Below are positions 1 through 34,450 of a DNA stretch of 64,000 bases, piece after piece. Below the pieces are notes generated by a model that did no database searches, was not told the DNA's origin, and saw only the letters and a list, made by a program, of their open reading frames with translations. Within the stretch, counting starts at the first letter, position 1. Each line of letters starts with the position of its first letter. The position numbers were made by a program, and so were the translations under genes. The DNA comes from Myxococcota bacterium. Its GTDB lineage: Bacteria > Myxococcota_A > UBA9160 > UBA4427. Location of the stretch: NCBI GenBank assembly GCA_965250285.1, contig OZ252299.1, forward strand, positions 5,504,001-5,568,000. Reading direction: 5' to 3'.

Positions 1-592
1 GGCTGCGCGAGGCGCCCGGGTGACGGGCGTGGATTTCTCGCTGCGCTCGATCAAGTACGCACGAGAAGTGGCCCGAGAGAAGAGTCTCGCAATCGACTAC
101 GTCCACCAGAACTACCTCGAGTTCGAAGCTACGGGTTCGTTCGATCTCGTTCTGATGATCATGTGTGACTTCTGCGCACTCAGCCCCGCCCAGCGCAGGC
201 ACATGCTCGCGAAGTTTCGGGACGTGCTTCGGCCCGGTGGTTCGGTTCTGCTCGACGTGTACTCGATGAACGCTTTCCATCAGTGTGAAGAAAGGCAGAC
301 CTTCGAGGTCAACCTGATGGATGGCTTCTGGTCACCGGACGAGTACTACGGGTTCTTGGGGACCTTCAAGTACGAACGCGAAGGGGTCTTGCTCGACAAG
401 TACACGCTGATCGACTCCACGGGCACGCGTGTCGTCTACAACTGGCTGCAGTACTTCAGCGCCACCGCGCTCGAAGCCGAGATCCGTGGTTCGGGCTTCG
501 AGGTCGAGGCGTTCTACGGCGACGTGGCCGGTCGGCCCTTCGACGCGGGCGGCGCCGAGTTCGCCGTCGTCGCGCGAAAGCGACGCGGCTGA
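1..592 (+). CDS. Class I SAM-dependent methyltransferase (5' partial)
   Basis: VTGVDFS, FDLVLMI and LRPGGSVLLD motifs; ORF runs off the window edge. Confidence 0.85.
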   Translation, partial: AARGARVTGVDFSLRSIKYAREVAREKSLAIDYVHQNYLEFEATGSFDLVLMIMCDFCALSPAQRRHMLAKFRDVLRPGGSVLLDVYSMNAFHQCEERQTFEVNLMDGFWSPDEYYGFLGTFKYEREGVLLDKYTLIDSTGTRVVYNWLQYFSATALEAEIRGSGFEVEAFYGDVAGRPFDAGGAEFAVVARKRRG

Positions 593-720
593 GAGGCAAA
601 GGGCGAGAGGGGGTCTCGACGCGTAGCCGCGTGGTAGGATCCTGCGTGTCGGCAGGCTAAAAGTGGCTATGCCATCGCTACGCGAGCAGCGGAGCCTCGA
701 TCTCGAGTCAGGAGGTCACG

Positions 721-1218
721 GTGGATCTCGATGCATTGGGCAACATCGGCGACTTCGTGGGCGGCCTCGCCGTCGTCGTCACGCTGATCTATCTCGCTTA
801 TCAGATCCGTCAGAACGGACGGCACGTGGAACAGGCCCTCGAAGTCTCTCGCGCGCAAGCCGTTCGCGAGACGCTGATCAATGATTGGACGCTCGAAGTT
901 GCACGCGACCCTGATTTGGCACGTCTCTACTCACGAGGCCTTCGCGATCCCGAGCAGCTGGCAGAGAATGATCTCGTCCGGTTCCTCTTCTTGATGGGCA
1001 CCGCCTTCGCGACGGTCGAGAAGTGTCTCTTGATGCACCAGCGGGGACTTCTCACCGACGAGCGTTGGAATGCTCAGTTGAGGACGCTCGGCATGTTCCT
1101 CGCCCAGCCGGGTGGCACCTACTACTGGAAGCGGTTCAGCTCGATGCATACGAGTGCCTTTGCGAGCGTGGTCGAGCAGGTCGCTCCAGGGATCGAGGCC
1201 TCGCTGCCCGCTGCGTAG
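721..1218 (+). CDS. Uncharacterised N-terminally anchored helical protein (family A, copy 1)
   Basis: GGAGG RBS; N-terminus DALGNIGDFVGGLAVVVTLIYLAYQIRQN; C-terminal PGGxxYW. Confidence 0.85.
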   Translation: MDLDALGNIGDFVGGLAVVVTLIYLAYQIRQNGRHVEQALEVSRAQAVRETLINDWTLEVARDPDLARLYSRGLRDPEQLAENDLVRFLFLMGTAFATVEKCLLMHQRGLLTDERWNAQLRTLGMFLAQPGGTYYWKRFSSMHTSAFASVVEQVAPGIEASLPAA

Positions 1219-1292
1219 TGCGGCAACCTTGCCAACGTCGAACGCTCGATGGTCGAGCGGGACGCGATGGCTCGACGAGGACTCGATCTGCC

Positions 1293-1739
1293 ATGCGAGA
1301 ATCGATCTCGGGCGGGTGTCTCTGTGGTGACGTTCGGTTCGAAGTCGTCGATCCTCCTGGCTCGGCATACCTCTGCCACTGCCGAAATTGCCAGAAGGCG
1401 CACGCCGCTCCCTATGCTGCTTTGATCATCGTTCAGCCAGCGCAGCTTCGACTCACTCGGGGTTCGCCGGTTCGCTACGAGCGCACGTCGGATAGCGGCA
1501 ACATGACTTTCCGTGAGTTCTGCGGCACGTGTGGCTCGCAGCTCTTCTCTGGCAACGTCGCCTTCGAGCAATTCAAAGCCGTGAAGATCATGACGTTCGA
1601 CGATCCGAATCGGATCGAACCCGATCGACACGTGTGGGTCGAGAGCGCCGTCGACTGGGTGTGCATGAACGACGGATTGCCCCGGATGGCCCAGCAACAA
1701 TCGACGGATGACTTCGTCGACGACCTGCCCGCGCCGTAG
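1293..1739 (+). CDS. GFA (CENP-V/Gfa) family zinc protein
   Basis: GGCLCG, CHCRNCQK and FCGTCGS motifs. Confidence 0.9.
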   Translation: MRESISGGCLCGDVRFEVVDPPGSAYLCHCRNCQKAHAAPYAALIIVQPAQLRLTRGSPVRYERTSDSGNMTFREFCGTCGSQLFSGNVAFEQFKAVKIMTFDDPNRIEPDRHVWVESAVDWVCMNDGLPRMAQQQSTDDFVDDLPAP

Positions 1740-2003
1740 AGCATGTTGCCCGTTCGTCGGCGCCGGCGGAGTCGGGCGGGATGCGATCGGTGCTCTCGAA
1801 GCCGGGCGGCTCCGGTCGCGCTCTGACCGTGCCGCTCGCGCTCGCGGCCGAGCAGGGTGGGCGGCCATACCGCGAGCCATCCCTCCTGTCTCACCGCGAC
1901 TTCTCGGCGACCCACCCGTGGTACGCTTCGCGTCTCCTTCGCGCCGATCGATTCGTCGGGAGCCCGGGACGAATCAAGTGGCGCCGACCGACGGGTGGCG
2001 CAC

Positions 2004-2477
2004 GTGTCGATCCAGGATCTCGGCAGTATCGGGGAGCTGGTCGCTGCCATCGCGACGGTGGTGACGCTCGTGTATCTGGCGATCCAGATTCGTGCGAACA
2101 CGCGCGCGCTCCGCTCGGAATCGAGGCGACATGAGCAGCAGGCCTCGAATCCGTTCTTGATGGCGATCGTCGAAAACGAAGATGTTGCGCGGCTCTTCGT
2201 TGCGGCTCTGTCTGATCCCGACTCGCTTTCGCCCGAAGACTCGGTGCGCTTCTCCCTCCTGCTTGGCCAGCATGTCGGGGCGGCAGCGCAGCATTACGAC
2301 GAGATCCTGCTCGGCTCGGCGTCCCGCTCGACGCTGGCCCGCCGAAGCCGGAGCATTGGAGTGTTCCTGAACACGCGGGGCGGGCGCCGGTTCTGGTCGC
2401 AGTACGCAGACCAGTACCCGGACGAGTTCCGCGAGTACGTCGAGAAGGAAGTCCTCAGGCGCTCGACGGTTGCGTGA
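2004..2477 (+). CDS. Family A protein, copy 2
   Basis: IQDLGSIGELVAAIATVVTLVYLAIQIRAN; GGRRFW; GTG start inferred from paralogues. Confidence 0.8.
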   Translation: MSIQDLGSIGELVAAIATVVTLVYLAIQIRANTRALRSESRRHEQQASNPFLMAIVENEDVARLFVAALSDPDSLSPEDSVRFSLLLGQHVGAAAQHYDEILLGSASRSTLARRSRSIGVFLNTRGGRRFWSQYADQYPDEFREYVEKEVLRRSTVA

Positions 2478-2684
2478 TCACATGGCAGTTTCGACCTGTC
2501 AGCGACTCGAACCGGAGCCTCTCTCGACTGCGCCGGATCTGGTCGGGGGAGGTCCCCTGCGCGCACACCGGACGCGAGCTATTTGGGGTCTTGGGCTCGA
2601 GGTCGCCTCGGGCTCGATGGCTGCGGGCGAAGCGGGCCCGCGATCAGGCTGCACCGATCGGGCGCCAAGCCGTGGGAGATCGTC

Positions 2685-3195
2685 GTGAGCGCACTCGCAA
2701 GGCTCGCATTCGTGCTGCTCGGCCTCTATCTGATGCTTGCGCCTTTCGGTGCGATCTTCTCGACGCTCCTGATCTTTCAGCAGTCTCCAGAGTTCGCCGA
2801 TCGGGGCGAGATCGAGGTCTGGCTGGTGGCGTGGTACGTGTTTCTGGTCGCCGCGCCGGGTGTCTTTCTGGTCGTGCGGGCGCAACGGATCGCGGAGTGG
2901 CTCTTCCCCGACGAGCCTCCCATCGACTCGGATGTCTCTTTTCGCACCGTCCTCCCGGCGCTCGTCGCGGCCGTTGGGATCTGGTTCGTGATCACGGGGA
3001 GCCATGGCTTCGCCGCCAAGCTGTACGCGATCGTCGTACCGGTGCCCGGTTTCGAACAGCTCTCGGGGTGGAGCGCGTGGGGAGTGGGCGACCTCACGAG
3101 CGCGGCCGTTCAGATCGGCATCGGGGTCTTCCTGGCTCTGCGCGCGCGCGGTCGCAGCGTTCCTGGCGCGCGAAGGTCGGTCTTCAGGAGACTGA
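2685..3195 (+). pseudogene. Membrane protein with apparent frameshift near 3150
   Basis: GGAG RBS and GTG start; about 4 TM segments; natural C-terminus (AVAAFLAREGRSSGD*) lies in another frame after a (CG)5 run. Confidence 0.6.
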
Positions 3196-3325
3196 CGTCC
3201 TGTTGCATCTGGCTCGCTCGCTCTGTCTCGCGAGAGGGGCGTGGTAGAGTCGAGTCGTCCAAGGCGTCATCGCCGCAGTGCTCAAGGCCGTTTGCCATTG
3301 AACGACGCCCCCTCGGTGGCAGGAG

Positions 3326-3640
3326 GTGGCCATCAGTCGGTACAAGTTCAAGCTGCCGACGAAAGGCACGCGGCGTCGTCGCTTGAAGTCGGATCGAACG
3401 CGGCTGACCTCACTCGGCGATCCGAATGCACCGCCGTCGCCCGATGGCCAACGCCCCGATGCGCTCCATGATGTGGCCTGGCGCGTACCGAGCTTCTCTG
3501 AGCTGCTCGCGTTCCTGATCATCGTCAGCGTGTTTGCGATCATCGTCGCGACGGCGACGTGCCCGGGCGAGCACATGTCGCTGCCGAAGGGGCCGACCGA
3601 CCAACCGGCCGAGCTCGTCAATGGCGAGGAGATGCGTTGA
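3326..3640 (+). CDS. Hypothetical single-TM protein
   Basis: One hydrophobic segment; stop overlaps the next ATG (TGATG). Confidence 0.5.
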
Positions 3641-4545
3641 TGCGCCTGCACGCGCTCGTTCTGGTCGGCCTCGCGGCTTGGTCCTGCTCGGCCTTCGAGA
3701 CTCGGCCGGCCGAAGGGAACCCCCCGCCCGAGTCGACCGCCGAGGTGGTTGCGATCGGTGATGTCGAGTGGGAGGCGCTCAACCCGGCAAGGGGCGATCA
3801 GAGCCCGAGGGCCGGCACGCTCTGGGGCGATCGCAACGCCGCCGTGCCCACGGGCTTTCTCGCTCGCTTCGAGGATGGCTTTTCGTCGCCGCCCCACATT
3901 CACAACGCGACCTACCGGGCCGTCGTGATCAGTGGGCTCATTCACAACGATGATCCCGAGGCCGCACCGATGTGGACGCCCGCTGGATCGTTCTGGACGC
4001 AGCCCAAGGGCGAGGTACACATCACCGCCGCCCAGGGCGCGAACAACATGGCGCTGGTCGAGATCGACGAGGGCCCGTACCTCGTCCGCCCGCCCAGCGA
4101 GGCCTTCGACCCCGGCGAGCGGCCCGTCAACCTCGACGTGTCGAACATCGTCTGGGTGACGCCCCTGGGCATGCCCGCTACAGCCGGCGGGCCAAAGCAG
4201 GCCTTCTTGTGGGGCCGCCTCGAACCGGGTGAGTCGAATGGCACCTTCCTCTCGCTGCCAGCAGGCTTCGAGGGGGCGATTCACAGTCGGGGCGACACGT
4301 TTCGGGCGGTCGTCATCCGGGGCCGACTGCAGGTCGGCGAAGCGGGGGGCGCTTCGCTCGAGCCTGGCAGCTACTTCGGCTCGAGGGGCGATGCGCTTCA
4401 TCGCGTCGCGGCGGCCCCCGGTGGCGACAGCGTGCTCTACATCCGAACCGATGGCGCATATGAGATCGTGCACCCGGATGGGCGCACGTCGGCCGCGTCG
4501 AATCGGTCGCCGGCGACTGAACGTGCGGCGGCGTCTGGCGAATGA
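3640..4545 (+). CDS. DUF4437 cupin-like lipoprotein
   Basis: Signal/lipobox; [28 protein letters not shown] and GSFWTQP motifs. Confidence 0.85.
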
Positions 4546-4591
4546 AGGTGGGTGGACACGCGCCTTTCTTCGAACGCATGGGGTGGCCTGA

Positions 4592-5608: not shown

Positions 5609-5763
5609 TCGGGTCCGACGCACGCCGCCGAGCGCGCCGGGGCTTCGGCGAGACCGGGCCGTGATAGAATGTCGGGGTGTGAGGCGTTCGCAGCCGACGT
5701 GCCAGATCGGTGCCCGTCATCGCAAGGCGGTCGCTGCCCAGCGAACCAACCCAGGAGACACTC

Positions 5764-6520: not shown

Positions 6521-7027
6521 ATGCTCGACGCGCTCGGCAACATCGGTGACTTCATCGGGGGCATCGCGGTCGTGGTGACGCTCGTCTACCTGGCTGTGCA
6601 GGTGCGACAGAACACGCGCGCCGTCGATACGGCGAGCCGACAGGAGATCGTCGCCGGCTTCAGGTCGCACAATCGTCTCTATCTCGAGCCCGGGGCCAGC
6701 AACGCGTTCACGGCCGGCATGCGTCGCTATCCCGATCTGCCGCAAGAGCAGCTGAATCTGTATACGGCGATCCAGACCGATCACGCGCTCTTCTTTCAAG
6801 GGGCGTTCGCTCTGCACGAGGCCGGCACGCTCGAAGACGAGACCTACGAGGCCTATCTCGCCTACTTCTGCGCCTCGATCGCGACGCCCGGGGGCGCCCG
6901 GTGGTGGTCGGAGATCGGTCCGATCTTCACGCGGCGAATGGCCGAGGCCGTCGACCGTCGGGTCGCGGCGGGCGGGTTGGCCGACCTGCGCTCGCTCGAA
7001 ACGTTCCGCGAGCCGCTGGCCCCCTGA
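6521..7027 (+). CDS. Family A protein, copy 3
   Basis: DALGNIGDFIGGIAVVVTLVYLAVQVRQN; TPGGARWW. Confidence 0.85.
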   Translation: MLDALGNIGDFIGGIAVVVTLVYLAVQVRQNTRAVDTASRQEIVAGFRSHNRLYLEPGASNAFTAGMRRYPDLPQEQLNLYTAIQTDHALFFQGAFALHEAGTLEDETYEAYLAYFCASIATPGGARWWSEIGPIFTRRMAEAVDRRVAAGGLADLRSLETFREPLAP

Positions 7028-9253: not shown

Positions 9254-9700
9254 ATGAACGTCACCGTGCGGATCATCTTGGCCTGTCTCGCCGGCATCGT
9301 CGCCGGCAGCGCGGTGAACATGGCGATCGTGACGATCGGGCCGATGGTCGTGCCCCCGCCGCCGGGCGTCGACGTGTCGGACGCCGAGGCGCTGGCCCGC
9401 GGCATTCACCTCTTCGAGCCACGGCACTTCGTCGCGCCGTTTCTCGCACATGCGCTCGGGACGCTGATCGGCGCCTTCGTGGCGTTCTGGGTCGTTCCTG
9501 CGCGCGGTCCCCTGGCTGCATTCGTGGTGGGCGGGTTCTTCTTCGTCGGCGGGGTGGCGGCCTCGTCGATGATCCCGGCGCCGGGGTGGTTCATCGCGCT
9601 CGATCTGCTCGGGGCGTACCTGCCGATGGCGTATCTCGGAGCCGTACTGGGGCGGCGCGCGTTGGGGGGCGGTGACGCGAGCGGGGCTGCCACCGATTGA
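9254..9700 (+). CDS. Hypothetical membrane protein
   Basis: Four TM segments; PFLAHALGTL and AYLPMA motifs. Confidence 0.75.
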   Translation: MNVTVRIILACLAGIVAGSAVNMAIVTIGPMVVPPPPGVDVSDAEALARGIHLFEPRHFVAPFLAHALGTLIGAFVAFWVVPARGPLAAFVVGGFFFVGGVAASSMIPAPGWFIALDLLGAYLPMAYLGAVLGRRALGGGDASGAATD

Positions 9701-9852
9701 CGTTCGCGTGAAGGGGTTCGTGCGGCGCTGAGGCGACACCGTGCCGTGATACGTTTCGGATTCTCGCCCGCGCGGGATCGGCCCCCGCGCTTCGGCCCAA
9801 GCTGCTCGGGGCCTGGTTCGGGGGCCTGCGAACTTTGAGGCACGCCCCACCG

Positions 9853-10689: not shown

Positions 10690-10823
10690 GGCACGTCTCG
10701 GACGGGTTTCAGACGCGGTTTCGTGTCGTATGGGGTGAACGCCTGCGTGATAGACTCGAAGGCACGGGTGGAGCTGTGTGTCAATCCGTCTGCTTCCGCC
10801 CCTCGCATCTGGAGGAGCCCTGC

Positions 10824-16095: not shown

Positions 16096-17466
16096 TCAGG
16101 CTTCGAGCGCGTGGGGCGGCGCTGCCCTCGGGTCGAGCTCGATCGAGACGCCCGAGACGTAGCGGCCCAGACGCGCGTCGACCTCGTCCCGGTCGGCGCC
16201 GGTCAGCATCACGGTCGCTACGGCGTCGTACGTACCCTCCGGTCCGGCGACGATCTCGCCCTCGTGCTTGATGAGTTCGGCCGCGCACTCGTTCTCGAAC
16301 GGCAGATCGTGTGGCAGCGCCACGCGCGTGATCTGCGACCGGGCTCCAGCGAGGAAGAAGTGGAGCAGGGCCGAGGCCGCCGGCGTCTCGTAGCAGCGCA
16401 GGTCGATCGGTGAATCGACCGCGATCTTCAGCGTCTGCTCGACGATGTCGACGCCGTAGCAGGTCTCGATCAGAGGCAGAACCGCCTCGCCGTCGATGCG
16501 GGCGTTGATCTCGTAGAGCTGCGGCCCGCGGTCGGTCATGACGGCGTCGAGGTTCACCGGTCCATCCGAGAGGCCGAACGCCGTGACGACGTCTTCAGCG
16601 AGCATTCGAAAGGCATGCTGATCTTCCCAACCGAGGCGGCTCGGAAACGCGAGCGTCGCGTAGCGATGATCCGACGAAGAGACGCACTGACCATCGGCGA
16701 TCGCGAAGAACACGATCTTGCCATTCTGTACGAGCAGCTCGATGCCGACGCGGCCCAGGCCGAAGGGCTCGAGTCGGGCGGCCGGCGCGAGATACTCTTC
16801 GAGCAGGAAGTTGGCGTGCTGCTCCGAGAAGTCGTCGAGCAGACTCTCGACCAGCTCGGCGGGGATGCGCGTCTGGATCTCGTGCAGCAGCGCATCGAAC
16901 GTCGGGATGATCTCGGCTTTGGTCGCGACGCGCCGGGTGGCGATCGATCCGGCGCCCTGTGCAGGCTTGAAGAAGGCGGGTGTGGGGAACCAGCGCGCCG
17001 CTGCTTCGGCCTCGTGTCGGTCGTCGAGGTGTACGAACCGAGGCACGGGCAGCCCCTTCATCTCGAGGATCTCGCGCATCATCGTCTTGTCGCGGCAGGC
17101 GACCGAACCCCACACGCTGTGGCCACAGTAGTCGAAGTCTCTCTGGAGCCGAGCCGTTGCCTCGCTGCGCTCTTCGATGAAGGTCACGATGCCGTCGAGC
17201 GGCTCACGGTCGATGTAGTGCTGTACGGCCGTATGGCAGGCGGCCTCGTCGGTCGGATCGACGGGCAGCACGGTCTGTGCGTACGCGGCTGCATCCGACC
17301 GGGCACTGCCGAGCAGCACGACCTCGACACCCAGCTCGCTCGCCCGTCGCACATGACCGCTCCCGCGCCGAGGCCATTCGTCGTCGCTTACGCCGACCAC
17401 CAGGACTCGCTTGCCCGCGAGCACGTCACCATCATCGAAATCAGACATCATGTTCGTTCTCTCCAT
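16096..17466 (-). CDS. ATP-grasp ligase (L-amino-acid ligase-like)
   Basis: DKTMMRE, KPAQGAGS, LLEEYL, YEINAR; start overlaps the upstream stop (TGATG). Confidence 0.85.
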   Translation of the reverse strand: MERTNMMSDFDDGDVLAGKRVLVVGVSDDEWPRRGSGHVRRASELGVEVVLLGSARSDAAAYAQTVLPVDPTDEAACHTAVQHYIDREPLDGIVTFIEERSEATARLQRDFDYCGHSVWGSVACRDKTMMREILEMKGLPVPRFVHLDDRHEAEAAARWFPTPAFFKPAQGAGSIATRRVATKAEIIPTFDALLHEIQTRIPAELVESLLDDFSEQHANFLLEEYLAPAARLEPFGLGRVGIELLVQNGKIVFFAIADGQCVSSSDHRYATLAFPSRLGWEDQHAFRMLAEDVVTAFGLSDGPVNLDAVMTDRGPQLYEINARIDGEAVLPLIETCYGVDIVEQTLKIAVDSPIDLRCYETPAASALLHFFLAGARSQITRVALPHDLPFENECAAELIKHEGEIVAGPEGTYDAVATVMLTGADRDEVDARLGRYVSGVSIELDPRAAPPHALEA

Positions 17467-18644
17467 CAGAAGTAGCTCTCGAGCTCTCCGGTTCGTCGCA
17501 CATCCAAGGTCACGCAGTGAAACCCGCCCCCCAGCTCGCGCCCATGTCGCAGCCGAAGCGGCAGCACGTCGATCCCCACGCCTTCGAGCTGCTCGATCAG
17601 CGCAGTCTGGTGCTGATCGACGACGGCCAGATCGGGCGACAGCATCAGCGTGTTCATGCCGAACCACTTCGAGGCCATGGGCGTGAGGCCGCTGTATCGA
17701 GGCTCGGCCATCTCGGGCGCGTAGAGCACCTGCCAGTCTCGAAGCGGCGCGGGCAGGTTGTCGGCATTCACGCGCTCGGGGTTGGCCAGCACCAGGCCGG
17801 GGCGCAGCAGGGCGAGCGTCGTGTCGATGTGCGCCGACGAGTAGAGATCGCGGCAGGCGTGAACGCGGTAGTCGGGGCCGAGCATCGATCGCAGCCAGGT
17901 GAGCCCCATCTCGTTGCCCGAGTCGGATACGAGATAGAACACGTCGCGCCCGGCCTTGATGACGTTCGCGGCGTCGAAGAGCGGCTCGGCGTTCGTGATT
18001 GCGCTGTCGGCGCCACTCGTGAAGTCGTACGCGTCGTCGGCGAGGATGGGGCGGGGTGCCGAGAGCCAACGCGCGCCGCTCTCGAGATACTCGGCCAGGA
18101 TCTTCTTGTAGGCCCAGGCTTCGAAGTAGCGTGAGCGAAAGACGTTGGGTGTTTCGATGATCGTGTCGCCGATCGAGAGCAGCACGTCACGGGGGCAGTA
18201 GGGGAAGTACCAGCCGCTCTCCCAGAGTGGAGTCTTGATCGTCTCGGTGTACTCGAGCGCTTCGGGTCGACGTACTCGGATGCCGAGCTTCTCGAGCTCA
18301 TTGGCGAAGATCGAAAGGTCTTCCTCGGTCTCCTCGATGATCCAATCGGGAAAGGCCGCTGCGCTCATGTCGCTGTAGATGTCGGGGGAAGCCTGCGACA
18401 GTGCGTCCATGCCGAGATCGTTCGGCAGTTGCGCGAACGCGGCCGTACCGACGATCACCTCTTCGAGCGGATCCCATTCATTGTGCGTTTGCACGAGGCT
18501 CTCGTGTGGCGAAGCGATTCGGGCGGTACACGGGATCGGTGGTGCCTTGTTGCAGTCGGTTCGTTCGCGGGTGTCGATCGGAAAGAGCTGTGCTGCGAAT
18601 GGATCGCTCGCAATCGGTTCAGCGGGAATATTCATGGATGACAT
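17466..18644 (-). CDS. Amidinotransferase (glycine/inosamine-phosphate amidinotransferase family)
   Basis: HNEWDPLEEVIVG, CPRD, FDAAN, HIDTT, GGGFHCVTLD (catalytic Asp/His/Cys). Confidence 0.93.
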   Translation of the reverse strand: MSSMNIPAEPIASDPFAAQLFPIDTRERTDCNKAPPIPCTARIASPHESLVQTHNEWDPLEEVIVGTAAFAQLPNDLGMDALSQASPDIYSDMSAAAFPDWIIEETEEDLSIFANELEKLGIRVRRPEALEYTETIKTPLWESGWYFPYCPRDVLLSIGDTIIETPNVFRSRYFEAWAYKKILAEYLESGARWLSAPRPILADDAYDFTSGADSAITNAEPLFDAANVIKAGRDVFYLVSDSGNEMGLTWLRSMLGPDYRVHACRDLYSSAHIDTTLALLRPGLVLANPERVNADNLPAPLRDWQVLYAPEMAEPRYSGLTPMASKWFGMNTLMLSPDLAVVDQHQTALIEQLEGVGIDVLPLRLRHGRELGGGFHCVTLDVRRTGELESYF

Positions 18645-20211: not shown

Positions 20212-20721
20212 ATGGGCCAGATCCATGGGCAGCACAAACCCTCGAAGAAGTCGAAGCTGGGCACGGGGTCTGCGCTCTTCACGTTGACTCTGTACCTGGC
20301 GCTTCTGCTGGCGCTGCGCGGTGTGTTCGGCGAGGTCGCCCTCGCGATTGCGTTTCCGGCCACGCTGGTCGCGATCATCGTGGTCCCGCTCTTTCGTGCC
20401 TACGTGTATCCAGCAGAGCCGCCGACACCGCGCGGTCGGCGCGTCGAGGTCGAGCGCGGCACGATGCGGCAATTCGATGACGACGCGCTCGTCGGATCGA
20501 TCGACCTGATGCAGCCCTTCGAGTACGAGATTCTCGATCGGCACCGTGCGCACGACTCGCTCTTTCGGGTCCATCAGCAGGGTGGGGCGCTCACGTTCTA
20601 CAATTCCGACCCGGGTGGTGCGGAGGCGGTTCGTGACGCGCTGCAGATCGAGTGGCCGAGGCCCGCGCGCGGGGCCAGTCGGAGCGTCGGCCCTTCGATC
20701 GAGGATGGGGACTTCCCTTGA
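20212..20721 (+). CDS. Hypothetical two-TM protein
   Basis: GGAGG RBS; two TM segments plus a soluble domain. Confidence 0.65.
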   Translation: MGQIHGQHKPSKKSKLGTGSALFTLTLYLALLLALRGVFGEVALAIAFPATLVAIIVVPLFRAYVYPAEPPTPRGRRVEVERGTMRQFDDDALVGSIDLMQPFEYEILDRHRAHDSLFRVHQQGGALTFYNSDPGGAEAVRDALQIEWPRPARGASRSVGPSIEDGDFP

Positions 20722-21231: not shown

Positions 21232-21711
21232 TTGACGATTCAAGATCTCGGGAGCCTCGGCGAGCTGGTCGCCGCGGCCGCGACCGTTGCGACGCTCGGT
21301 TATCTCAGCATCCAGATCCGCACGAGCAATCGACTCGCGCGCGCCGAGGCCTCGCGTAGCCCGAACAGCGATCTGAACGCGATCAACGGCGCATTCGGTA
21401 CGAACGCGGCATTCCTGGCAGCCCTGCGCCAGATTCTGACGGGGGCCGAGCGCGCCGACATCGATCCGCTCGACCGCTCGCTGCTCGACATGTACCTGCT
21501 GTCGGTGACGAACCTGCAGGAGCAGCTCTATCGCGAGCTCTGGGCGGGGGTGGTGGACGAAGAGGCGCTCGACTTCGGGGGCAAGGGCCTGTTCCTGCTG
21601 CCGTACTACCGCACCAGCTGGCCGATCTATCGAAACTACCTGACGAGCGCGTTCGTCGAGCAGTTCGAGCAGCGCTACGACCTCGATCCGACGATCGATG
21701 CGGTCGTGTAG
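21232..21711 (+). CDS. Family A protein, copy 4
   Basis: TTG start; IQDLGSLGELVAAAATVATLGYLSIQIR. Confidence 0.8.
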   Translation: MTIQDLGSLGELVAAAATVATLGYLSIQIRTSNRLARAEASRSPNSDLNAINGAFGTNAAFLAALRQILTGAERADIDPLDRSLLDMYLLSVTNLQEQLYRELWAGVVDEEALDFGGKGLFLLPYYRTSWPIYRNYLTSAFVEQFEQRYDLDPTIDAVV

Positions 21712-23158: not shown

Positions 23159-24733
23159 CTACTTCGAGGCTTCGGCCACGTACTTCGAGAGCTGCTCGAT
23201 CTGCTCGGGCGTGAGCGTGTGGTCGTAGGCGGGCATCGCGCCGACGCCCCCCGTGACCGCACTCTCGACGGTCGCGGCATCGGGCTTCAGGTCGTTCAGG
23301 TTGGGGCCGACGGCGCCCTGAGTGCCGGCGTCGGTCAGGGTGTGGCACACGCCGCAGGGGGGCTGGGCCGATTGGAAGATGTCGCGCCCGGCCTGGGCAT
23401 CGGCCGAGAGCGATGCCTTTGGCCGAGCGGCCGTTGGCTCTGCGGGCGGCGGCGCCGATTCGGCTGCGCTCGGTGATTCGGCGGTCGCACGCTCGGGCAG
23501 CTCGGCGACGAGATCGACGCGCAGCGCCGCGTCGAGCCAGCCGTTGTGGCCGTAGCCTCGCTCGTTCGGTTGGCTCGCGCGCGGTTGCACGTCGCCCCGG
23601 GCATCGGTCGCGCGTGAGGCGATCGTATACGTGCCCGGCTCGAGGTCGGTGGTATACGCGAACGTGCGCCACGCGTTGGGGCCGAGATCGGGGCCGACGA
23701 GCTCGGCCGACTGCCACGAGTCGCCTTCGTCGAGCGAGACGTCGACGCCCTGCACGCCGCGCTCCCCCGAGAGCGCGACGCCGTAGAACGTGACGCGGCC
23801 CGCGAGCGTCGGTGTGTCGTCGGCGCCCGGTCCGTTGATCCAGGATTTGACCGGCATGCGCCACATCGACGGCTGCGTCGGAGCGCCCGCTTCGCCGAGC
23901 GGTCGCATGCGATAGCCCGACTGCTGGATCTTGGCCGACGATTCGGTCGAGGTGGCTGCGATGCGGCGCACGTACTTGATGCTGTTGACGCCGTAGTACC
24001 CCGGCACGATGAGCCGCAGGGGGCCGCCATGCGTGAGCGGCAGCGGCTCGCCGTTCATCTCCCAGGCGAGCAGCGCGTCGTCGAGCGCCTTGTCGATCGG
24101 GATCGAACGCTCGACGACCAGGTCGTCGCGGTCGAGTCCGTCGGGTAGCGCTTCGCCCCCGGTCGACGTCAGGTACGGCTTGCCGCTCGTCACGCCGCCG
24201 AAGTGTTCGACCACCGTGCGCACGCGCACGCCTGTCCAGACTGCGCAGCCCGCCGCTCCCGTTCGCCACGGTGAGCCCGAAGGGTCGTGTTCGAAGAACG
24301 CGCGCCCGTTGCCCGAACACTGGAGCACCGCCCCCTCGGTGTCGATGCCGAGCCCCTTCAGCTCGGCCAGGGTGATCGAGCCGGGCTGGGCGACGCCCGC
24401 GACTTCGAGCGCCCATTCGTCGGGGTGCGCCAGGATGGTGTCGGACGGCATCGGCAGGTTGTTGCGAACGAAGAAGCGCGAGATCGGCGTGATGACGCTG
24501 CGGCCGATCTGCGAGCGGCGAACCTCGAGCGCCATCGGAGACCGGCTGTGCACGATGAAGGGCGCCGGGTCGAGCCCTCCGGGCCATCCCGACGTCGCGG
24601 GTGCCGCGGTCGACACCGTCGTCTGGTGGGCCGACGAGCCCGGCCGGCAGCCCGGCAGCGCGAGCGCTGCGCCCGTGGCGAGCATGGCCTGTAGAAACTG
24701 ACGTCGGCTTCGCGTGGGTCTTGCGACCTTCAT
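23159..24733 (-). CDS. Sulfite-oxidase-family molybdoenzyme fused to a C-terminal cytochrome c
   Basis: SRRQFL Tat motif and LPGC lipobox; FFVRNN, LQCSGNGR, HGGPLRLIVPGYYG; C-terminal CGVCH and GAMPAY. Confidence 0.9.
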   Translation of the reverse strand: MKVARPTRSRRQFLQAMLATGAALALPGCRPGSSAHQTTVSTAAPATSGWPGGLDPAPFIVHSRSPMALEVRRSQIGRSVITPISRFFVRNNLPMPSDTILAHPDEWALEVAGVAQPGSITLAELKGLGIDTEGAVLQCSGNGRAFFEHDPSGSPWRTGAAGCAVWTGVRVRTVVEHFGGVTSGKPYLTSTGGEALPDGLDRDDLVVERSIPIDKALDDALLAWEMNGEPLPLTHGGPLRLIVPGYYGVNSIKYVRRIAATSTESSAKIQQSGYRMRPLGEAGAPTQPSMWRMPVKSWINGPGADDTPTLAGRVTFYGVALSGERGVQGVDVSLDEGDSWQSAELVGPDLGPNAWRTFAYTTDLEPGTYTIASRATDARGDVQPRASQPNERGYGHNGWLDAALRVDLVAELPERATAESPSAAESAPPPAEPTAARPKASLSADAQAGRDIFQSAQPPCGVCHTLTDAGTQGAVGPNLNDLKPDAATVESAVTGGVGAMPAYDHTLTPEQIEQLSKYVAEASK

Positions 24734-25004
24734 CCGCGTTCCTCCATGCGAAAGCTTCGCATACACCGACGACGCATCCACGTGATCCGTTCCTCGGTTG
24801 CGGGCCGCCAAGCGTCGAGGTCGCGCATTGGACGCGCGCCCGCGCTGTCACGATCTGGGGGCAACCGACACAGGCCGAACCTGGTAGCCTTCCGACATCA
24901 TTCGATCTGGCTCGACGCGCCCGTTCAGGTCTGACGCGGGCGGGTGAGCGGCACGCTGTATGCCCGTGACATCGACGCGGGTCACACCGGCGAAGGAGTC
25001 TTCG

Positions 25005-26668: not shown

Positions 26669-27022
26669 ATGCAGCTGCGAACCAAGCGCATCTACGAGGC
26701 GGCGAGCGGCGGGGACGGGGTGCGCATCCTCATCGACCGTCTCTGGCCGCGGGGCGTCTCGCGCGACGCCGCTGCCATCGACCTGTGGGCGAAGGATCTC
26801 GCGCCCTCGAGTGAGCTGAGAACGTGGTACCAGCACGATCACGCGAAGTGGCCCGAGTTTCGCAAGCGGTACTTCGCCGAGCTCGACGGGAACCGCGAGG
26901 CGGTGGCCGACGTCGTTTCGATGATCGGCGATGGGGTCGCGACGATCGTGTTCGGCTCGAAAGAGACGGTGAAGAACAATGCGAGCGCCTTTCGTGAATA
27001 CCTCGAGGGGTTCGAGCCGTGA
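26669..27022 (+). CDS. DUF488 (YeaO-like) protein
   Basis: KRIYE, RILIDRLWPRGVS, LAPSSELRTWY. Confidence 0.9.
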   Translation: MQLRTKRIYEAASGGDGVRILIDRLWPRGVSRDAAAIDLWAKDLAPSSELRTWYQHDHAKWPEFRKRYFAELDGNREAVADVVSMIGDGVATIVFGSKETVKNNASAFREYLEGFEP

Positions 27023-29120: not shown

Positions 29121-29612
29121 ATGACTCTTCAAGATCTCGGCAGCGTGGGCGAGCTCGTCGCGGCCCTCGCCACGGTCGCAACCCTTGCGTATCTCGCGCT
29201 GCAGATTCGGCAGAACACCGTACAGCTGCGCGACAACGCACGGGCGATCCGCTTGAGCGAGGTGCGCGCGGCGGCCGACGGTGAGATCGACTTTCGGCGC
29301 CTGCTGCTGACCGACCCGGAGGTCGACGATGTGTTCGATCGCGGCGTGCGGGGCGAACCGCTCGACTCGACGAGCGCTCGCCGATTCGGACATGCCCTGC
29401 TCGAGTACAGCCTGAGGTCGCAGGGTCGTTGGTATCTGGTGCAGCAGTCGATCTTGTCGCAGGCCTACTGGGAGCGCGTCTCTTCGTTCCACCTCGACTT
29501 CTTGAGCCAGGCGCTGGCCCGGCAGTGGTGGGCCGAGAACCGGTATCGATTCGATCCACGATTCGTCGAGGATCTCGATCGTCGCCTCGCCGAACGCGAC
29601 GCGTCGAGCTGA
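29121..29612 (+). CDS. Family A protein, copy 5
   Basis: LQDLGSVGELVAALATVATLAYLALQIRQN; RQWW...FDPRFVEDLD. Confidence 0.85.
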   Translation: MTLQDLGSVGELVAALATVATLAYLALQIRQNTVQLRDNARAIRLSEVRAAADGEIDFRRLLLTDPEVDDVFDRGVRGEPLDSTSARRFGHALLEYSLRSQGRWYLVQQSILSQAYWERVSSFHLDFLSQALARQWWAENRYRFDPRFVEDLDRRLAERDASS

Positions 29613-29733: not shown

Positions 29734-30141
29734 ATGCGCGGAAGCTGTCTGTGTGGGGCCGTTCGCTACCGACTGAACGCTGAGCCCCAGTGGGCGCACA
29801 ACTGCCACTGCTCGCGATGCCGAAAGGCGACCGGGGCGAGCTTCGCTTCGAATCTCTTCGTGTCGCTGGATGCGCTCGAGTTCACGGAAGGCGAGGACCT
29901 CGTCCGTTCGTACAAGCCACCCGAAGCGGAGCGGTTCACGCACGCGTTCTGCGAGATCTGCGGCGGCGGCCTGCCGTTTCGCAACGAGGCGCGAGGACGC
30001 GCGGTGGTGCCGATGGGTAGCCTCGACGACGATCCTGGTCTCGCACCGAAGGCCCACATCTTCGTCGAGTCGCGGGCGCCGTGGCACGAGATCATCGACG
30101 ATCTCCCGCGGCACCCCGAGGCGCTCGGCTCGGGCAGGTAG
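29734..30141 (+). CDS. GFA family protein
   Basis: GSCLCG, CHCSRCRKATG, FCEICG. Confidence 0.92.
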   Translation: MRGSCLCGAVRYRLNAEPQWAHNCHCSRCRKATGASFASNLFVSLDALEFTEGEDLVRSYKPPEAERFTHAFCEICGGGLPFRNEARGRAVVPMGSLDDDPGLAPKAHIFVESRAPWHEIIDDLPRHPEALGSGR

Positions 30142-30169
30142 CGGGCCTCTCCACGATCCGCGGTGCCAG

Positions 30170-30287
30170 GGCCGGGGCAGGCGGGGGCACCGTGCTCAGA
30201 CATTCTCGGCGCGACCCACCAGGGAAGTTCGTATGGTGCGCCCGTCGCGCCTGCGAACTGCGCGCGGTCCCCCCGCCTGCCCCGGCC
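30170..30287. repeat. 118-bp nested inverted repeat (MITE-like or structured RNA)
   Basis: 30-bp arms 30170-30199 and 30258-30287 (27/30 complementary), plus inner 8-bp and 5-bp stems. Confidence 0.7.
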
Positions 30288-30547
30288 TCGGGACGCTTCC
30301 GTTTCACCGCCGCACTCTCCGTCAGGAAGCGCTCGCGGCGAGTGGCCTAGCCCTTCCGCTTCCACGCCTCACCCTCGAACGTCTAGCGGGAAGCCATCGA
30401 GTTCAGCGCCCAGAGCTGTTCTCGCATGCGGGGAGTGAGGTCTGCAGAGCATCCCTAGCGGGGTCGCATGCTCTAATCCACCCTTCGGTTTGGACGGTGC
30501 GCAGCTTGGTCGAGCGCGGCCATCGACTCGCCCGGGAGCCGGCGCGC

Positions 30548-30979
30548 ATGGAAGAGGGCAAGCGGATCTATCGAGGAGTGCCCGAGTCGGCTCGTGCGCT
30601 GCAGGACTATCTCGAGCAGCACGGTGTCGAGTCGGTTCTCGAGAGCCATGAAGAGATCGGGGTGCGCAGCCGTACGCGGATGCTGGCGCGGCAGGACGTG
30701 ATCGTGGGGGCCGAGCATCGCGCGCGCGCCGAAACCCTGCGCGATCAGTGGCAGACGTCTACGGCGCTACGGGCGCGCGGGTTGTCGCGTCGCGCGGCCG
30801 GCGTGATCATGGGCAGCCTCATCCCGGTGGGCGTGTGGTTCGTGTGCGAGCGCCTCGCTCTGGACGGCGTGCCCGAGTTCACACTCGAGCGAGGGATCGG
30901 CGTCTGGTTCGTGACGGTGGTCGTGCTCGGACAGATCGAATCGCAACGCCGGGCGGCCGAACGCATCGAGATGCCGTGA
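30548..30979 (+). CDS. Hypothetical membrane protein
   Basis: GGGAG RBS; soluble N-domain plus two TM segments. Confidence 0.65.
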   Translation: MEEGKRIYRGVPESARALQDYLEQHGVESVLESHEEIGVRSRTRMLARQDVIVGAEHRARAETLRDQWQTSTALRARGLSRRAAGVIMGSLIPVGVWFVCERLALDGVPEFTLERGIGVWFVTVVVLGQIESQRRAAERIEMP

Positions 30980-31048
30980 GCGGGCCGGGCGCGGCCGGGA
31001 GATGAAGCCACGGATACGCCGCTTCGCAAGATCCTGACGATCGGCAGC

Positions 31049-31471
31049 ATGGCGCTCGCGTTCGTCTTGCTGGGTGATGGGCTCGCCATGCTGCTGCCTG
31101 GCCCCACGAGCGCAGTCGGCGGGCTGGCGTTGATGCTCGTGGGGCTCATGTGGCTGGTCCTCGCCATGCCGCGCCTGCTCTCGACCGAGGGGCGGCCGTT
31201 CACGGCGATCCTCGTCGCGCGATTCGGGCTGCTCATGGTGCCGCCGCTGGGTGCCCTCATGGCCGGGATCTGGTGGCTCTCGACCCCCGAGGCGCTGTCG
31301 CGCTGGTTTGCCGTTGCGTGGGGCGTCGTCTGGGCGGGCTGTGTCGGGCTTTCGGCGGTCGTGCGTTGTCCGAGCTGCGGGCATCTCTTCAGTCGCCGGG
31401 GGCTTCGGTTCGAGGTTGCCTCGTCGTCATGTCCGCACTGTGGCGCGAACCCGCGAGGCGGGGTCGGGTAG
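31049..31471 (+). CDS. Membrane protein with C-terminal zinc ribbon
   Basis: Four TM segments, CPSCG and CPHCG; start uncertain. Confidence 0.7.
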   Translation: MALAFVLLGDGLAMLLPGPTSAVGGLALMLVGLMWLVLAMPRLLSTEGRPFTAILVARFGLLMVPPLGALMAGIWWLSTPEALSRWFAVAWGVVWAGCVGLSAVVRCPSCGHLFSRRGLRFEVASSSCPHCGANPRGGVG

Positions 31472-31615
31472 ACGGCACCGATGGGGCCCGATAGCGAGAA
31501 GGCGGAGGGGGCCGCGTGGTAGCATCGCGGTGTCACGTCGCTGGCGAGCGCGCGACCAACCGAACGCTCGTTGGGTGATGTGAGCCCTCGCAACGTCCAG
31601 ATAAGGGCCAACGTC

Positions 31616-32176
31616 ATGGCCTACACCCTGCGCGCCGTCGGCGAAGCCGATCTCGACCGTCTCTTCGACCTGCTCTCGATCCCCGACGTGTACGCGTACT
31701 TGAGCGACGGCGTCGCGCCCGACCGCGCGATCGTCGCGGCCTGGGTCACCGAGGCGTTGCAGGCCGCCCCGCCGCAGGGTCTGTGGATTCTCGAGGAGGC
31801 GCCGGGCGAGGCCGCGGGCTGTGTTCGGCTCTCGGCCGTCGAGGACGGCTCGGCCTCGGCCGAGCTTACGTACGTGCTGCACCCGTCGGTCTGGGGCCGC
31901 GGCCTGGCGACGACGATGAGCCGCACGGTGATCGCGCGAGCCTTTGAAACCCCGACCTGTCAGACGATCTTTGCGGGCGCCGACGCGCCCAACGCGCGGT
32001 CGATCGAGGTCATGAAGCGACTCGGCATGCGCGCATGGCGCGAGGTCAGCTATCCAGCCGGGCTCGGGGTCGAATATCTGCTGCACCGCGACGCGTTCGA
32101 TCCGACCGCGCCGAAGCTCGCCTGGGCAGAGCGCTTGGCTCGAGGGCTGTGTGGCAGTCTGGAAAGAGAGGGATGA
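31616..32176 (+). CDS. GNAT (RimJ/RimL-like) acetyltransferase
   Basis: ELTYVLHPSVWGRGLA; NARSIEVMKRLGM. Confidence 0.88.
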   Translation: MAYTLRAVGEADLDRLFDLLSIPDVYAYLSDGVAPDRAIVAAWVTEALQAAPPQGLWILEEAPGEAAGCVRLSAVEDGSASAELTYVLHPSVWGRGLATTMSRTVIARAFETPTCQTIFAGADAPNARSIEVMKRLGMRAWREVSYPAGLGVEYLLHRDAFDPTAPKLAWAERLARGLCGSLEREG

Positions 32177-32177
32177 C

Positions 32178-32525
32178 GTGGCCGATGACGTCGACGACTT
32201 CTTCTCGCGATACGAAGCCGAGGTGCGAGAGACCGCCCGTGCACTGCGCGCAGCGCTTCGTCGCATCGCGCCGGACGCGAACGAGACGCTGCACGTCGGC
32301 TGGAAGTGCGTTTCGTATGGAACCGCCAAGAAGTTCTGCGCCATCGCCCCGCACACGAGCTCGGTCAATCTGCAGTTTCATGCGGGGGCTGCGCTCGACG
32401 ATCCGCGCGGGTTGCTGACCGGCACCGGCAAGTCGATGCGACACGTGAAGCTCGTCGCGGCGAAGGACGTTCGGCGGGCCGGCCTCGCGAAGTTGATCCG
32501 TGAGGCGGCGAAGCAGGCCGGCTAG
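32178..32525 (+). CDS. DUF1801 (YdhG-like) protein
   Basis: LDDPRGLLTGTGKSMRHVK. Confidence 0.88.
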   Translation: MADDVDDFFSRYEAEVRETARALRAALRRIAPDANETLHVGWKCVSYGTAKKFCAIAPHTSSVNLQFHAGAALDDPRGLLTGTGKSMRHVKLVAAKDVRRAGLAKLIREAAKQAG

Positions 32526-32561
32526 CCGCGCCAGCGCTCGGCGCGGCAGGAGGAGGCGCGC

Positions 32562-32843
32562 GTGCAGTTTGCCAAGCGATTGCGACCGCTCGTACAGAGC
32601 GGCGAAGTCACCTGCAGCGTGCGCATCTGGAAACAGCCGCGTGTCAAGGTCGGGGGGCGATACGCTCTGCCGCCGGGTGAGATCGAGGTGCTTTCGATCA
32701 CGGGCCTCACGCGAAGGCAGCTCACCCGTGAGCTGGCGATTCGCTCGGGCTTCGAGTCGGTCGACGACCTGCTCGAGATCGCGCAGCACGGCACGGGCGA
32801 GTGCATCTTTCTCGTCGAGTTCTGCTACCACGATCCCGTGTAG
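32562..32843 (+). CDS. ASCH-like small protein
   Basis: GEVTCSVRIW, KVGGRY, SGFESVDDL; AGGAGG RBS. Confidence 0.75.
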   Translation: MQFAKRLRPLVQSGEVTCSVRIWKQPRVKVGGRYALPPGEIEVLSITGLTRRQLTRELAIRSGFESVDDLLEIAQHGTGECIFLVEFCYHDPV

Positions 32844-32934
32844 GCGAGTCGCCGCCGCGATTGATCGGTGCACGTCGAAAGGGGCATACTCGTGAGGTCG
32901 GCGCGGTCGCTGGCCGCGAGCCAACCCCTGGGAG

Positions 32935-33381
32935 ATGAAGGTGGACGATTCGATCCTCAGCCGTGTCACCGAAGAGGTCGAGGGGCTGCACGCCTTCTTC
33001 GTCGAGTGGTTCTCGGGGCGTTCAGCGGAGGGCGACTTCGAGTCGGGCTTCTCCGTGCGATTCGCCGAAGACCTCGTGTTCATTCCGCCGGCGGGCACGC
33101 TGCTCGGGCTCTCGGATCTCTCGTCAGCGGTCCATGCAGGGCACGGCTCGAATGCCGAATTCCGGGTCCAGATCCGCAACGTGCGGATCCATCGCGAATT
33201 TGGTGGGTGCGTGCTCGCCACCTATGAAGAGTGGCAGCGCAACGCGCTCGCCTCGACGCCGCCCGACAACGCGCGGCTCGCGACGGTGCTCTTTCGCATG
33301 GGCGATCGCCTCGAGTGGCTGCACATTCACGAGACGTGGCTGCCGGCCGAGGTGATGGCGCAGGGCCCGTACGACTTCTGA
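32935..33381 (+). CDS. NTF2-like (DUF4440-like) protein
   Basis: LHAFFVEWF, LATYEEWQ, WLHIHETWL. Confidence 0.8.
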   Translation: MKVDDSILSRVTEEVEGLHAFFVEWFSGRSAEGDFESGFSVRFAEDLVFIPPAGTLLGLSDLSSAVHAGHGSNAEFRVQIRNVRIHREFGGCVLATYEEWQRNALASTPPDNARLATVLFRMGDRLEWLHIHETWLPAEVMAQGPYDF

Positions 33382-33442
33382 GCGCGAGGCCAACCCGCTC
33401 GCGCGCGTCTGCGCGCGACATCGACGCAAGAGGAGAGGGTTC

Positions 33443-33889
33443 ATGCTGCCCATCGAAGCCGTCAACCACGTCGGGATCCGCGTGGGCGAGAAGGAGCGTT
33501 CGGTGGCGTTCTATGGAGGCCTCGGCTTCGAGCTCGTTCGCGATGCCGGCTTCGAGTCGGGGCATCCCGTGATCATGCGTCACGCGTCGGGGGTCGTGCT
33601 GAACCTGCTCGGGCCCGCGAACGCAGTTGACGGGTCGAACATCTTGATGGACGTCCCCGAGAAGCACCCGGGCATCACGCACGTCGCGCTGACCGTCTCG
33701 TCGCTCGAACGCACGCGCGCCTTCCTCGCCGAGCACGACATCGAGATCACGGGCTCGTTCTCGTTCGGGGACATGTCGGCCGTGTTCATCCGCGACCCCG
33801 ATCGCAACGTGATCGAGCTCGATGCCTATTGCGGGCCCACCGAGGCCCACCCCACCGACGGCTCGGGCTACTCGAATCATCCCGACTGA
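33443..33889 (+). CDS. VOC/glyoxalase family protein
   Basis: VNHVGIRV, THVAL, FIRDPDRNVIEL. Confidence 0.9.
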   Translation: MLPIEAVNHVGIRVGEKERSVAFYGGLGFELVRDAGFESGHPVIMRHASGVVLNLLGPANAVDGSNILMDVPEKHPGITHVALTVSSLERTRAFLAEHDIEITGSFSFGDMSAVFIRDPDRNVIELDAYCGPTEAHPTDGSGYSNHPD

Positions 33890-33925
33890 CGGCGCTGCGA
33901 CGCCGGCGGAACGATCGGAGCCTGC

Positions 33926-34357
33926 ATGAAGGCCACGTCGCTCGTACTCGGCCCGCTGCAACAGGTCGCGCTCTCGGTGCGCGACCTCGATCGCAGCGTC
34001 GCCTTTTTTCGCGATGGCGTTGGCCTGGAGCAGATCGCCGTGATCGACCCGCCCGGCATCGCGTTCTTTCGCCTCGGTGAGACGCGCCTGCTGCTCGAGC
34101 GCAGCGCATCGGTCTCGCCCGGCGCGGCCACGCTCTACTTTCGTGTGGCCGACATCGACGCTGCCCACGCTGCTCTCCGGGCGCGCGGGATCGAGTTCGA
34201 GCAACCGCCGCATCTGATCCACAGAGACGATTCGGGGACGTTCGGCGCGGCCGGCGAAGAAGAGTGGATGGCCTTCTTCAAGGATCCCGACGGCCACGAT
34301 CTCGCGATTGCGGCGCGCATGCGGGGCCGGACCGGAGCCGGAGAGCGACCGCGGTGA
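33926..34357 (+). CDS. VOC/glyoxalase family protein
   Basis: QVALSVRDLDRSVAFF, WMAFFKDPDGH. Confidence 0.9.
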   Translation: MKATSLVLGPLQQVALSVRDLDRSVAFFRDGVGLEQIAVIDPPGIAFFRLGETRLLLERSASVSPGAATLYFRVADIDAAHAALRARGIEFEQPPHLIHRDDSGTFGAAGEEEWMAFFKDPDGHDLAIAARMRGRTGAGERPR

Positions 34358-34450
34358 CGATCGTGGCCTTCGACGCCGCTCGTTTCGGTGACGTGGTCGA
34401 GCTGTCACTCAAGGCCTGGGCCCCGTCTTCGTGTCGCTTCGAAGCGAGAG
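34354..34450 (+). pseudogene. N-terminal remnant of a GNAT-like gene
   Basis: Coupled GTGA start; TIVAFDAARFGDVVELSLKAWAP then frameshifted VFVSLRSE, after which coding character is lost. Confidence 0.45.

Follow-up and report, generated by a model that had tools for sequence, protein, structure and literature searches.

The stretch of DNA analysed here (the window) comprises 64,000 nucleotides of a Myxococcota genome (C1:5,504,001-5,568,000 of a single 6.25-Mb contig with 68.6% G+C), and its first 34,450 nucleotides are the old distal end of one continuous chromosomal integron array of about 75 kb. The genes in this part are likely former cassettes that have become immobile, and the cassette recombination sites (attC) of the array carry in their variable loop an extended -10 motif, a likely promoter of the following cassette. 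That the gene array began as an integron is, in our view, close to certain. We also consider it probable that the full account holds, namely that the window contains an eroded integron tail in which the attC-borne extended -10 element, as a likely promoter, was kept after the recombination arms had decayed.

Between positions -271 and 34,450 (negative coordinates continue the window numbering leftward of base 1), a self-trained gene caller, which missed a few genes such as the open reading frame (ORF) at 2682, predicts 50 genes, 45 on the plus and five on the minus strand, with a median length of 458 bp and with 41 of the 50 between 250 and 900 bp. Past 34,450, the 25 predicted genes are longer (median 957 bp) and mixed in orientation (16 plus, nine minus). 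The small co-oriented array and its end, both described in an earlier note on the letters of the window, are therefore real. Leading-strand bias was rejected as the cause of the polarity: the plus strand is the leading strand at the window, as judged by cumulative GC skew, but leading-strand genes make up 55.7% of the genome, and 50-gene windows that are at least 85% co-oriented with a median length of at most 550 bp account for 0.33% of those outside the locus. Nor was gene order shared with relatives, since all five relatives searched contained single genes only, on other contigs or in other orders.

The earlier note had found neither attC nor integrase and proposed either gene accretion by an unidentified mechanism or a very eroded integron array, suggesting a search for a recombinase to the left. 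An integron integrase gene indeed lies 41 kb left of the window start, on the same strand as the array (Table 1). The encoded protein of 334 amino acids covers the whole TIGR02249 profile with 439 bits (cut-off 265) and is uninterrupted by a stop. A consensus scan for the cassette promoter (Pc) gave no match, and one TAnnnT hexamer about 50 nt before the inferred attI is a candidate. The 49 intact attC sites that follow are uninterrupted elements of 129–135 bp with AAC/GTT cores and two extra-helical bases. In an alignment of 37 sites (28 from this genome and nine from the relative G016), which was made without regard to the motif described below, the R and L stems are paired in 97.7% of cells, with columns 16 and 23 unpaired, and 64 cells have changed on both sides, compared with 15.8 in shuffles; double-sided changes are seen in eight pairs. 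The free fold of one attC bottom strand has its minimum in an alternative structure, the canonical recombinogenic hairpin not being the predicted ground state. A single plus-strand ORF covers at least 60% of the cassette in 41 of 49 cases and starts a median of 16 nt past the crossover, so that no space remains for a promoter of the cassette's own. Overall, the locus displays the features tested of a sedentary chromosomal integron, namely IntI, attC sites and co-oriented one-ORF cassettes. Cassettes alike in length and ORF layout are repeated at several positions, which would fit past shuffling by IntI. Cassette bodies of about 280 bp are, moreover, found repeatedly in the intact array (L001, L002; window -36960, -34645, -33228, -32277, -29990, -28261, -27863, -26005 and -20172); most are without a long plus-strand ORF, and they may be gene-less or RNA cassettes.

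Towards the window, the attC sites decay progressively. The mean score of a profile hidden Markov model (HMM) of attC falls from 82 and 82 to 72, 21 and 11 bits in successive 10-kb steps from attI and then to almost nothing, while G+C rises along the array from 0.57–0.64 (about 0.60) to 0.68 and G+C at third codon positions (GC3) from 0.76 to 0.85, close to the genome value of 0.88. These gradients identify the window as the old end of one array, and they support the polarised gain of modules that the earlier note had proposed to look for. Over about two-thirds of the array length the attC sites are eroded or absent. No intact attC is present in the window by pattern search, HMM or covariance model, the best covariance-model match being partial (22.5 bits), and to this extent the earlier note was correct; it did not recognise the relics at 3202–3307 and 5642–5713, the second of which also reaches E 2.4e-4 with the covariance model and a flank score of 71, above all 394 background sites. 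Within the eroding zone, ARAGORN places a 'tRNA-???' call (C1:5500732-5500819; window -3268 to -3181) that coincides with an eroded attC and is probably false.

Could the window instead be a separate insertion hotspot, built by another, unknown mechanism and merely adjoining the integron? The lack of intact attC in the window and the weakness of the relic signal beyond about 10 kb would be compatible with this, and the long reverse-strand genes and a repeat resembling a miniature inverted-repeat transposable element (MITE) indicate that other insertions did occur. Against this stand the unbroken gradient from intact to eroded attC that runs into the window, a strand and gene size common to the whole array, the relics at 3202, 5642, 9747 and 24874, and the fact that the gene families of the window occur as attC-flanked cassettes elsewhere: in the relatives G037, G079 and G016, attC sites adjoin or flank homologues of the family A, DUF488, GFA and VOC genes. 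No dedicated junction repeat was found in the window either, the 20 largest direct-repeat families being gene-family starts or chance. We regard a separate hotspot as very improbable, and the accretion mechanism of the earlier note falls by its own test, its alternative of a very eroded integron array being the one borne out. In support of a long tail without attC, contig 21 of the relative G005 has attC sites in its first 20 kb, followed by 80 kb without detectable attC that contain 27 motifs on the array strand and one on the opposite strand, together with homologues of window genes in a different order. One public contig covers the eroding zone and window positions 1–2000 without differences, although it may be the source of the genome and is in that case not independent, and no strain indels are listed in the three runs of one study that contain the stretch.

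The variable loop of all 49 intact attC sites contains the sequence TGnTAnnnT on the top strand, and none contains it on the bottom strand. The motif is located at offset 50–52 of the site, 62–68 nt (about 63 nt) before the crossover. In the 37-site alignment, the invariant loop columns are G33, T53, G54, T56 and G101, with A57 and T61 at least 90% conserved, such that the motif bases constitute five of the few conserved loop columns, and 12 different hexamers are found among the 47 distinct attC sites, with only T, A and T fixed. A second, weaker patch resembling AATCG (model positions 42–46 of alignment A2; 51–64% conserved) lies about 5–10 nt upstream of the TG in many loops and may serve as another promoter element or as a binding site for a factor. 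The sigma-70 extended -10 promoter consensus consists of TGn followed by TAnnnT, and we compared it with the intergenic DNA and tRNA leaders of the host. Outside the two arrays, 355 of the 392 copies of the motif (91%) are intergenic, compared with 11–17% of the copies of each of three control patterns, 50% for the same hexamer lacking the T of TG and an intergenic share of 13% in the genome as a whole. The full motif is found within 120 nt upstream of seven of the 61 tRNA/tmRNA calls, and TAnnnT in the same interval for 30 of the 61, in many cases 12–36 nt upstream. Because the motif is mostly intergenic genome-wide and occurs upstream of tRNAs, it is likely to represent a host extended -10 promoter element, and the attC copy is likely to act as a built-in promoter.

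The motif is shared by related integrons. Among 68 genomes of the family, 34 have integrase matches and 43 have matches to the attC model, which also matches 21 of 141 genomes in a phylum-wide sample, 17 of these in the same class. The motif was counted in model matches with both cores intact, eroded or short matches being dropped (51 of 144 in the family, 30 of 100 in further relatives and 14 of 58 in unrelated taxa). On the top strand, it is present in 58 of 93 intact attC sites from ten family genomes (none on the bottom strand; 3.2 by shuffling) and in 42 of 70 from another 12 genomes, drawn from the family, order and class (one on the bottom strand; 2.2 by shuffling), giving 100 of 163 sites from 22 relatives with a single bottom-strand copy. 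The attC model was trained on motif-bearing sites, in part from G016, without which 48 of 79 family sites still have the motif; a structure-only finder applied to the family loci gives 33 of 47 on the top strand and none on the bottom. Beside integrases of unrelated taxa, 0 of 44 intact attC sites contain the motif. In two such taxa, attC arrays that follow the 3' end of intI on the same strand (L013:13054-20718 and L016:9784-15226) lack the full motif, so that co-orientation alone is no sign of an attC promoter. In different attC types of the lineage, the motif lies 25–30, 45 or 60–70 nt before the crossover, which suggests repeated acquisition. Of the regions beside 12 integrases in ten genomes of the genus g14, several lie at contig ends; a strict finder, used first, detected no array among them, and the model gave few matches.

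Within the window, the strict attC form of the motif is found 12 times on the plus strand and not at all on the minus strand of positions 1–34,450, and it is absent from 34,451–64,000; elsewhere outside the arrays the genome has 38 copies, i.e. about 0.1 expected per strand per 34 kb. Including one less strict copy, 13 motifs are listed in Table 1. When the motif and 3 nt on each side are excluded, the flanks of the window sites are more attC-like than those of 394 background sites (p about 1e-4), and the sites at 3242, 5662 and 9747 outscore every background flank. A start codon follows 60–120 nt past the motif in ten of 13 window sites and in 106 of 327 elsewhere (p 0.002), the median distance of 80 nt in the window being the same as in intact cassettes. 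These comparisons bear on a further explanation, in which the window genes are former cassettes while their promoters are ordinary host promoters, arisen anew or brought in by the genes and unrelated to attC. As the motif is a general extended -10 element of the host, such an origin is conceivable; the total flank score has an empirical p above 0.05 at six of the 13 sites, and the left flanks, taken by themselves, do not reach significance (p 0.16). Yet an attC-specific context accompanies 12 of the 13 window motifs as opposed to 38 of 394 copies elsewhere, the spacing between motif and start matches attC geometry, intermediate states are seen in the eroding zone, and three sites exceed the whole background, as stated above. 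We therefore consider host promoters unrelated to attC to be an improbable source, and the promoter-like motifs of the window are, judging from these sequence comparisons, probably remnant attC cores whose recombination arms have decayed. The motif that the earlier note had attributed to many modules is thus genuine, although it precedes a minority of them. The note had also taken it as a sign against classical cassettes, which does not hold, since the motif is part of the attC of this lineage and the cassettes are classically promoterless, with their ORFs beginning directly past the crossover.

What survives in decaying sites was assessed in two ways. By masking of segments, all five key motif bases are kept in ten of the 18 eroded sites, compared with one of 18 for R'', one for L'', four for L' and one for R', and A/T bases survive in 52 of 72 motif positions versus 80 of 180; as the profile used to find these sites includes the motif and their terminal segments align worse, the contrast is inflated, which counts against our account. 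In a gene-anchored test, 13 of 17 junctions were significant, and of these 13 the full motif was kept in six and both cores in none. Retention in this test was 0.71 for the motif, 0.63 each for L'' and the other positions, 0.46 for R'' and 0.49 for R'. Loss of the cores is clear in the eroded sites, and preferential retention of the motif, by selection after arm decay, is likely but not proven.

Further observations weigh against the same account. In the gene-anchored test, L' (0.76) is kept as well as the motif, and just two of 44 window junctions pass it. The window motifs at 10748 and 31517 have no flank signal, and retention is partial, with the motif preceding 12 of 44 plus-strand window genes (216 of 5,177 elsewhere), such that most old cassettes have lost the motif too or are read from upstream. 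The promoter role is deduced from sequence; a scan for TTGACA/TATAAT finds no site in 6.3 kb of intact array, no -35 element is evident, and TTG at a spacing of 15–19 accompanies six of 53 intact-array motifs, although a TTG -35 is also rare at background motifs (20 of 394). In the relatives, the full motif is missing from 35 of 93 and 28 of 70 intact attC sites, and in G029 it is present in none of ten, TAnnnT being found in all ten. Tails are short or absent in several relatives (e.g. G016 and contig 5 of G038), and neither attC copies nor related genomes are independent, so that p values overstate the significance.

Several of these points would be expected if the window were an eroded integron tail whose motif is no working promoter, being instead an inherited A/T-rich patch that aids melting of the loop or binds a host factor and that has survived by chance and ascertainment. 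The missing -35 element and the equal retention of L' agree with such a role, and a melting aid is plausible given that attC extrusion is reportedly impeded by long variable loops (PMC8946536). A patch of this kind would not, however, readily account for conservation of exactly T-G-n-T-A-n-n-n-T with varying inner bases, for the strand asymmetry of 100 to one among 163 sites, for the occurrence of the same motif in intergenic and tRNA-upstream DNA throughout the genome, or for its differing placement among attC types. We judge a motif without promoter function to be unlikely, though less so than the other alternatives, and retain the reading of an attC-borne promoter.

The remaining features of the window concern individual gene families and later insertions (Table 1). 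In a Pfam scan of 50 window proteins (E<=1e-6), the repeated families of the earlier note are largely recovered, with four GFA, three glyoxalase/VOC and two methyltransferase genes in addition to the five of family A, but just two SnoaL/NTF2-like genes and one GNAT gene are detected, a third NTF2-like gene falling below detection at this threshold. Family A, whose proteins of about 160 amino acids share a conserved N-terminus, is very common among the cassettes of the lineage; 127 of 242 candidates are homologues, nearly all without a name, and it is present in the arrays L103, L104, L108, L109 and L115 of relatives. The reverse-strand gene pair at 16096–18494 is likely a later, non-cassette insertion; it has slightly lower G+C and may be a small biosynthetic insert. 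The molybdopterin oxidoreductase gene is likewise unlikely to be a cassette, and the MITE-like repeat was likely inserted later into the tail. The broken gene remnants that the earlier note had seen at junctions were not recovered: 15 gaps compared with the genome's own proteins, to which this search was confined, yielded only uncalled parts of whole genes and a dispersed repeat. No tRNA, tmRNA or Rfam element is present in the window. Its right half contains short tandem or repetitive extragenic palindromic (REP)-like repeats at 37130–37234, 41466–41608 and 52228–52303, with periods of 36, 17 and 38 bp. Elsewhere in the genome, a second attC cluster, in which tblastn detects neither an integrase nor a remnant of one, would by inference be a cluster of attC sites lacking an integrase (CALIN) that is served by the distant IntI.

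Table 1. Features of the integron locus, of the window and of the second attC cluster (window numbering unless contig positions are given)
Feature	Position	Strand	Remarks
intI	5,462,777-5,463,781 (L001:4777-5781; window -41,223 to -40,219)	+	TIGR02249
Inferred attI core	near 5,463,990	+	GTT core ~210 bp past intI; matching R'' ends first cassette
49 intact attC sites	5,464,424-5,490,072 (window -39,576 to -13,928)	+	all with TGnTAnnnT in loop
18 eroding attC sites	5,490,660-5,502,610 (window -13,340 to -1,400)	+	HMM; 13 at E<0.05
Integron tail	1-34450	+	~50 short, mostly co-oriented, likely former cassette genes; no intact attC
attC relic	3202-3307	+	motif at 3242; nhmmer E 3.7e-4 genome-wide; flank score 92, maximum 57 among 394 background sites
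attC relic	5630-5718 (HMM 5642-5713)	+	motif at 5662; nhmmer E 9e-4 genome-wide
attC relic	9700-9830	+	motif at 9747; flank score 68, above all 394 background sites; junction alignment p 0.007
Weak attC relic	24874-24960	+	motif at 24882; 12.9 bits with broader 159-sequence HMM; right-flank score 49, background maximum 45
13 extended -10 motifs	632, 1919, 3242, 5662, 6462, 9747, 10748, 12538, 14328, 21932, 24882, 27350, 31517	+	none on minus strand
Family-A genes (5)	721-1218, 1995-2477, 6521-7027, 21232-21711, 29121-29612	+	no Pfam match; homologues adjoin or lie between attC in relatives
ATP-grasp gene and 342-aa gene	16096-18494	-	longer genes; the 342-aa product has no Pfam match at 1e-6
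Gene with paralogue in the genome's own intact array	20212-20721	+	46-52% identity; paralogue cassette 29.6 kb left of window
Molybdopterin oxidoreductase gene with cytochrome c domain	23159-24685	-	Pfam scan
DUF488 gene	26669-27022	+	homologue in G079 (63% identity) is a cassette flanked by attC at either end
Dispersed ~315-bp repeat, MITE-like	30146-30460		34 BLAST matches elsewhere in genome, 77-93% identity
Second attC cluster	G000:C1:109237-114100		5 intact and 1 eroded attC, the extended -10 motif in each; core resembling attI near 108.8 kb

As in other integrons, IntI would insert new cassettes at attI and push older ones away, such that distance reflects age. We suggest that transcription by RNA polymerase carrying the housekeeping sigma factor begins some 55 nt ahead of every crossover and continues across L' and R' into the ORF that follows, in which case expression would not fade with distance from attI. 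Since each attC moves together with the cassette that precedes it, genes would meet new promoters on reshuffling, which would swap promoter strength rather than switch genes on. Mutation of the R'' and R' cores would leave a cassette that can no longer be excised and is frozen in place; where the frozen cassette is useful, its inherited promoter would be kept by selection and the gene would become an ordinary chromosomal gene. Extended to the whole class, attC would be a two-in-one element that combines a recombination hairpin with a housekeeping promoter in its loop and was gained more than once, in different attC types, cassettes would be expressed anywhere in an array, shuffling would tune their expression by pairing genes with stronger or weaker attC promoters, and the array would act like a conveyor belt on which captured cassettes become permanent chromosomal genes, their arms decaying and the promoter staying. 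Towards this wider proposal we lean only slightly.

In the general model, cassettes are promoterless and become silenced with distance from Pc (PMC8946536). The standard view of large arrays is that of a silent, low-cost memory expressed near Pc only; a promoter in each attC, if true, would breach this rule across an entire lineage. It has long been asked how cassettes turn into stable genes of the chromosome, and the question is made testable here by one single-contig genome that presents an ordered series from new cassette to fixed gene. Tools based on attC would miss about half of the array, and the conserved motif offers a way to trace former cassettes.

The builder of the array is itself an ordinary integron; the novelty lies in a promoter motif located within attC and in a traceable passage from cassette to fixed gene. 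In the open-access literature, as represented by main texts, we came across no case in which the attC loop of a lineage has a conserved promoter; most cassettes lack a promoter according to reviews, with 5' leaders, toxin-antitoxin cassettes and gene-less cassettes as exceptions (PMC8876359, PMC8946536, PMC4889954, PMC3607928). The locus resembles sedentary chromosomal integrons of the Vibrio superintegron type (Cury et al. 2016, PMC4889954) in its IntI tyrosine recombinase, its long array of near-identical attC sites of about 130 bp with long variable loops, the one short ORF just past each crossover and the low G+C near attI. It differs from them in that intI lies on the cassette strand, an orientation reported for Treponema-type integrons (PMC11014356), and in the large share of its length with eroded or absent attC; from the promoterless-cassette model (PMC8946536) it departs through the extended -10 conserved in every intact attC. 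The window alone resembles a decayed CALIN (PMC4889954), although the array that contains it is headed by an intact intI. Outward promoters of group IIC-attC introns (PMC3001079) are likewise delivered at attC junctions, but there the promoter belongs to the inserted intron, whereas the intact attC sites described here are uninterrupted. Of the two nearest precedents, one is Vibrio DAT722 (Michael and Labbate 2010, PMC2945992), where a sigma-70-type promoter overlaps attC and, supported by quantitative PCR, drives the downstream cassette; it is described for one junction as a promoter bridging the attC, in contrast to the whole motif lying inside the loop at 49 of 49 sites and recurring across the class. 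The other comes from Vibrionaceae superintegrons, in which internal promoters express distal cassettes and some transcription starts map within attC (Blanco et al. 2024, PMC11014356). The promoters reported there reside in special gene-less cassettes, not in attC, and the scattered starts in attC are described there as possibly spurious, A/T-driven initiation, whereas the motif in the present array is positionally fixed within G+C-rich attC sites and conserved base by base.

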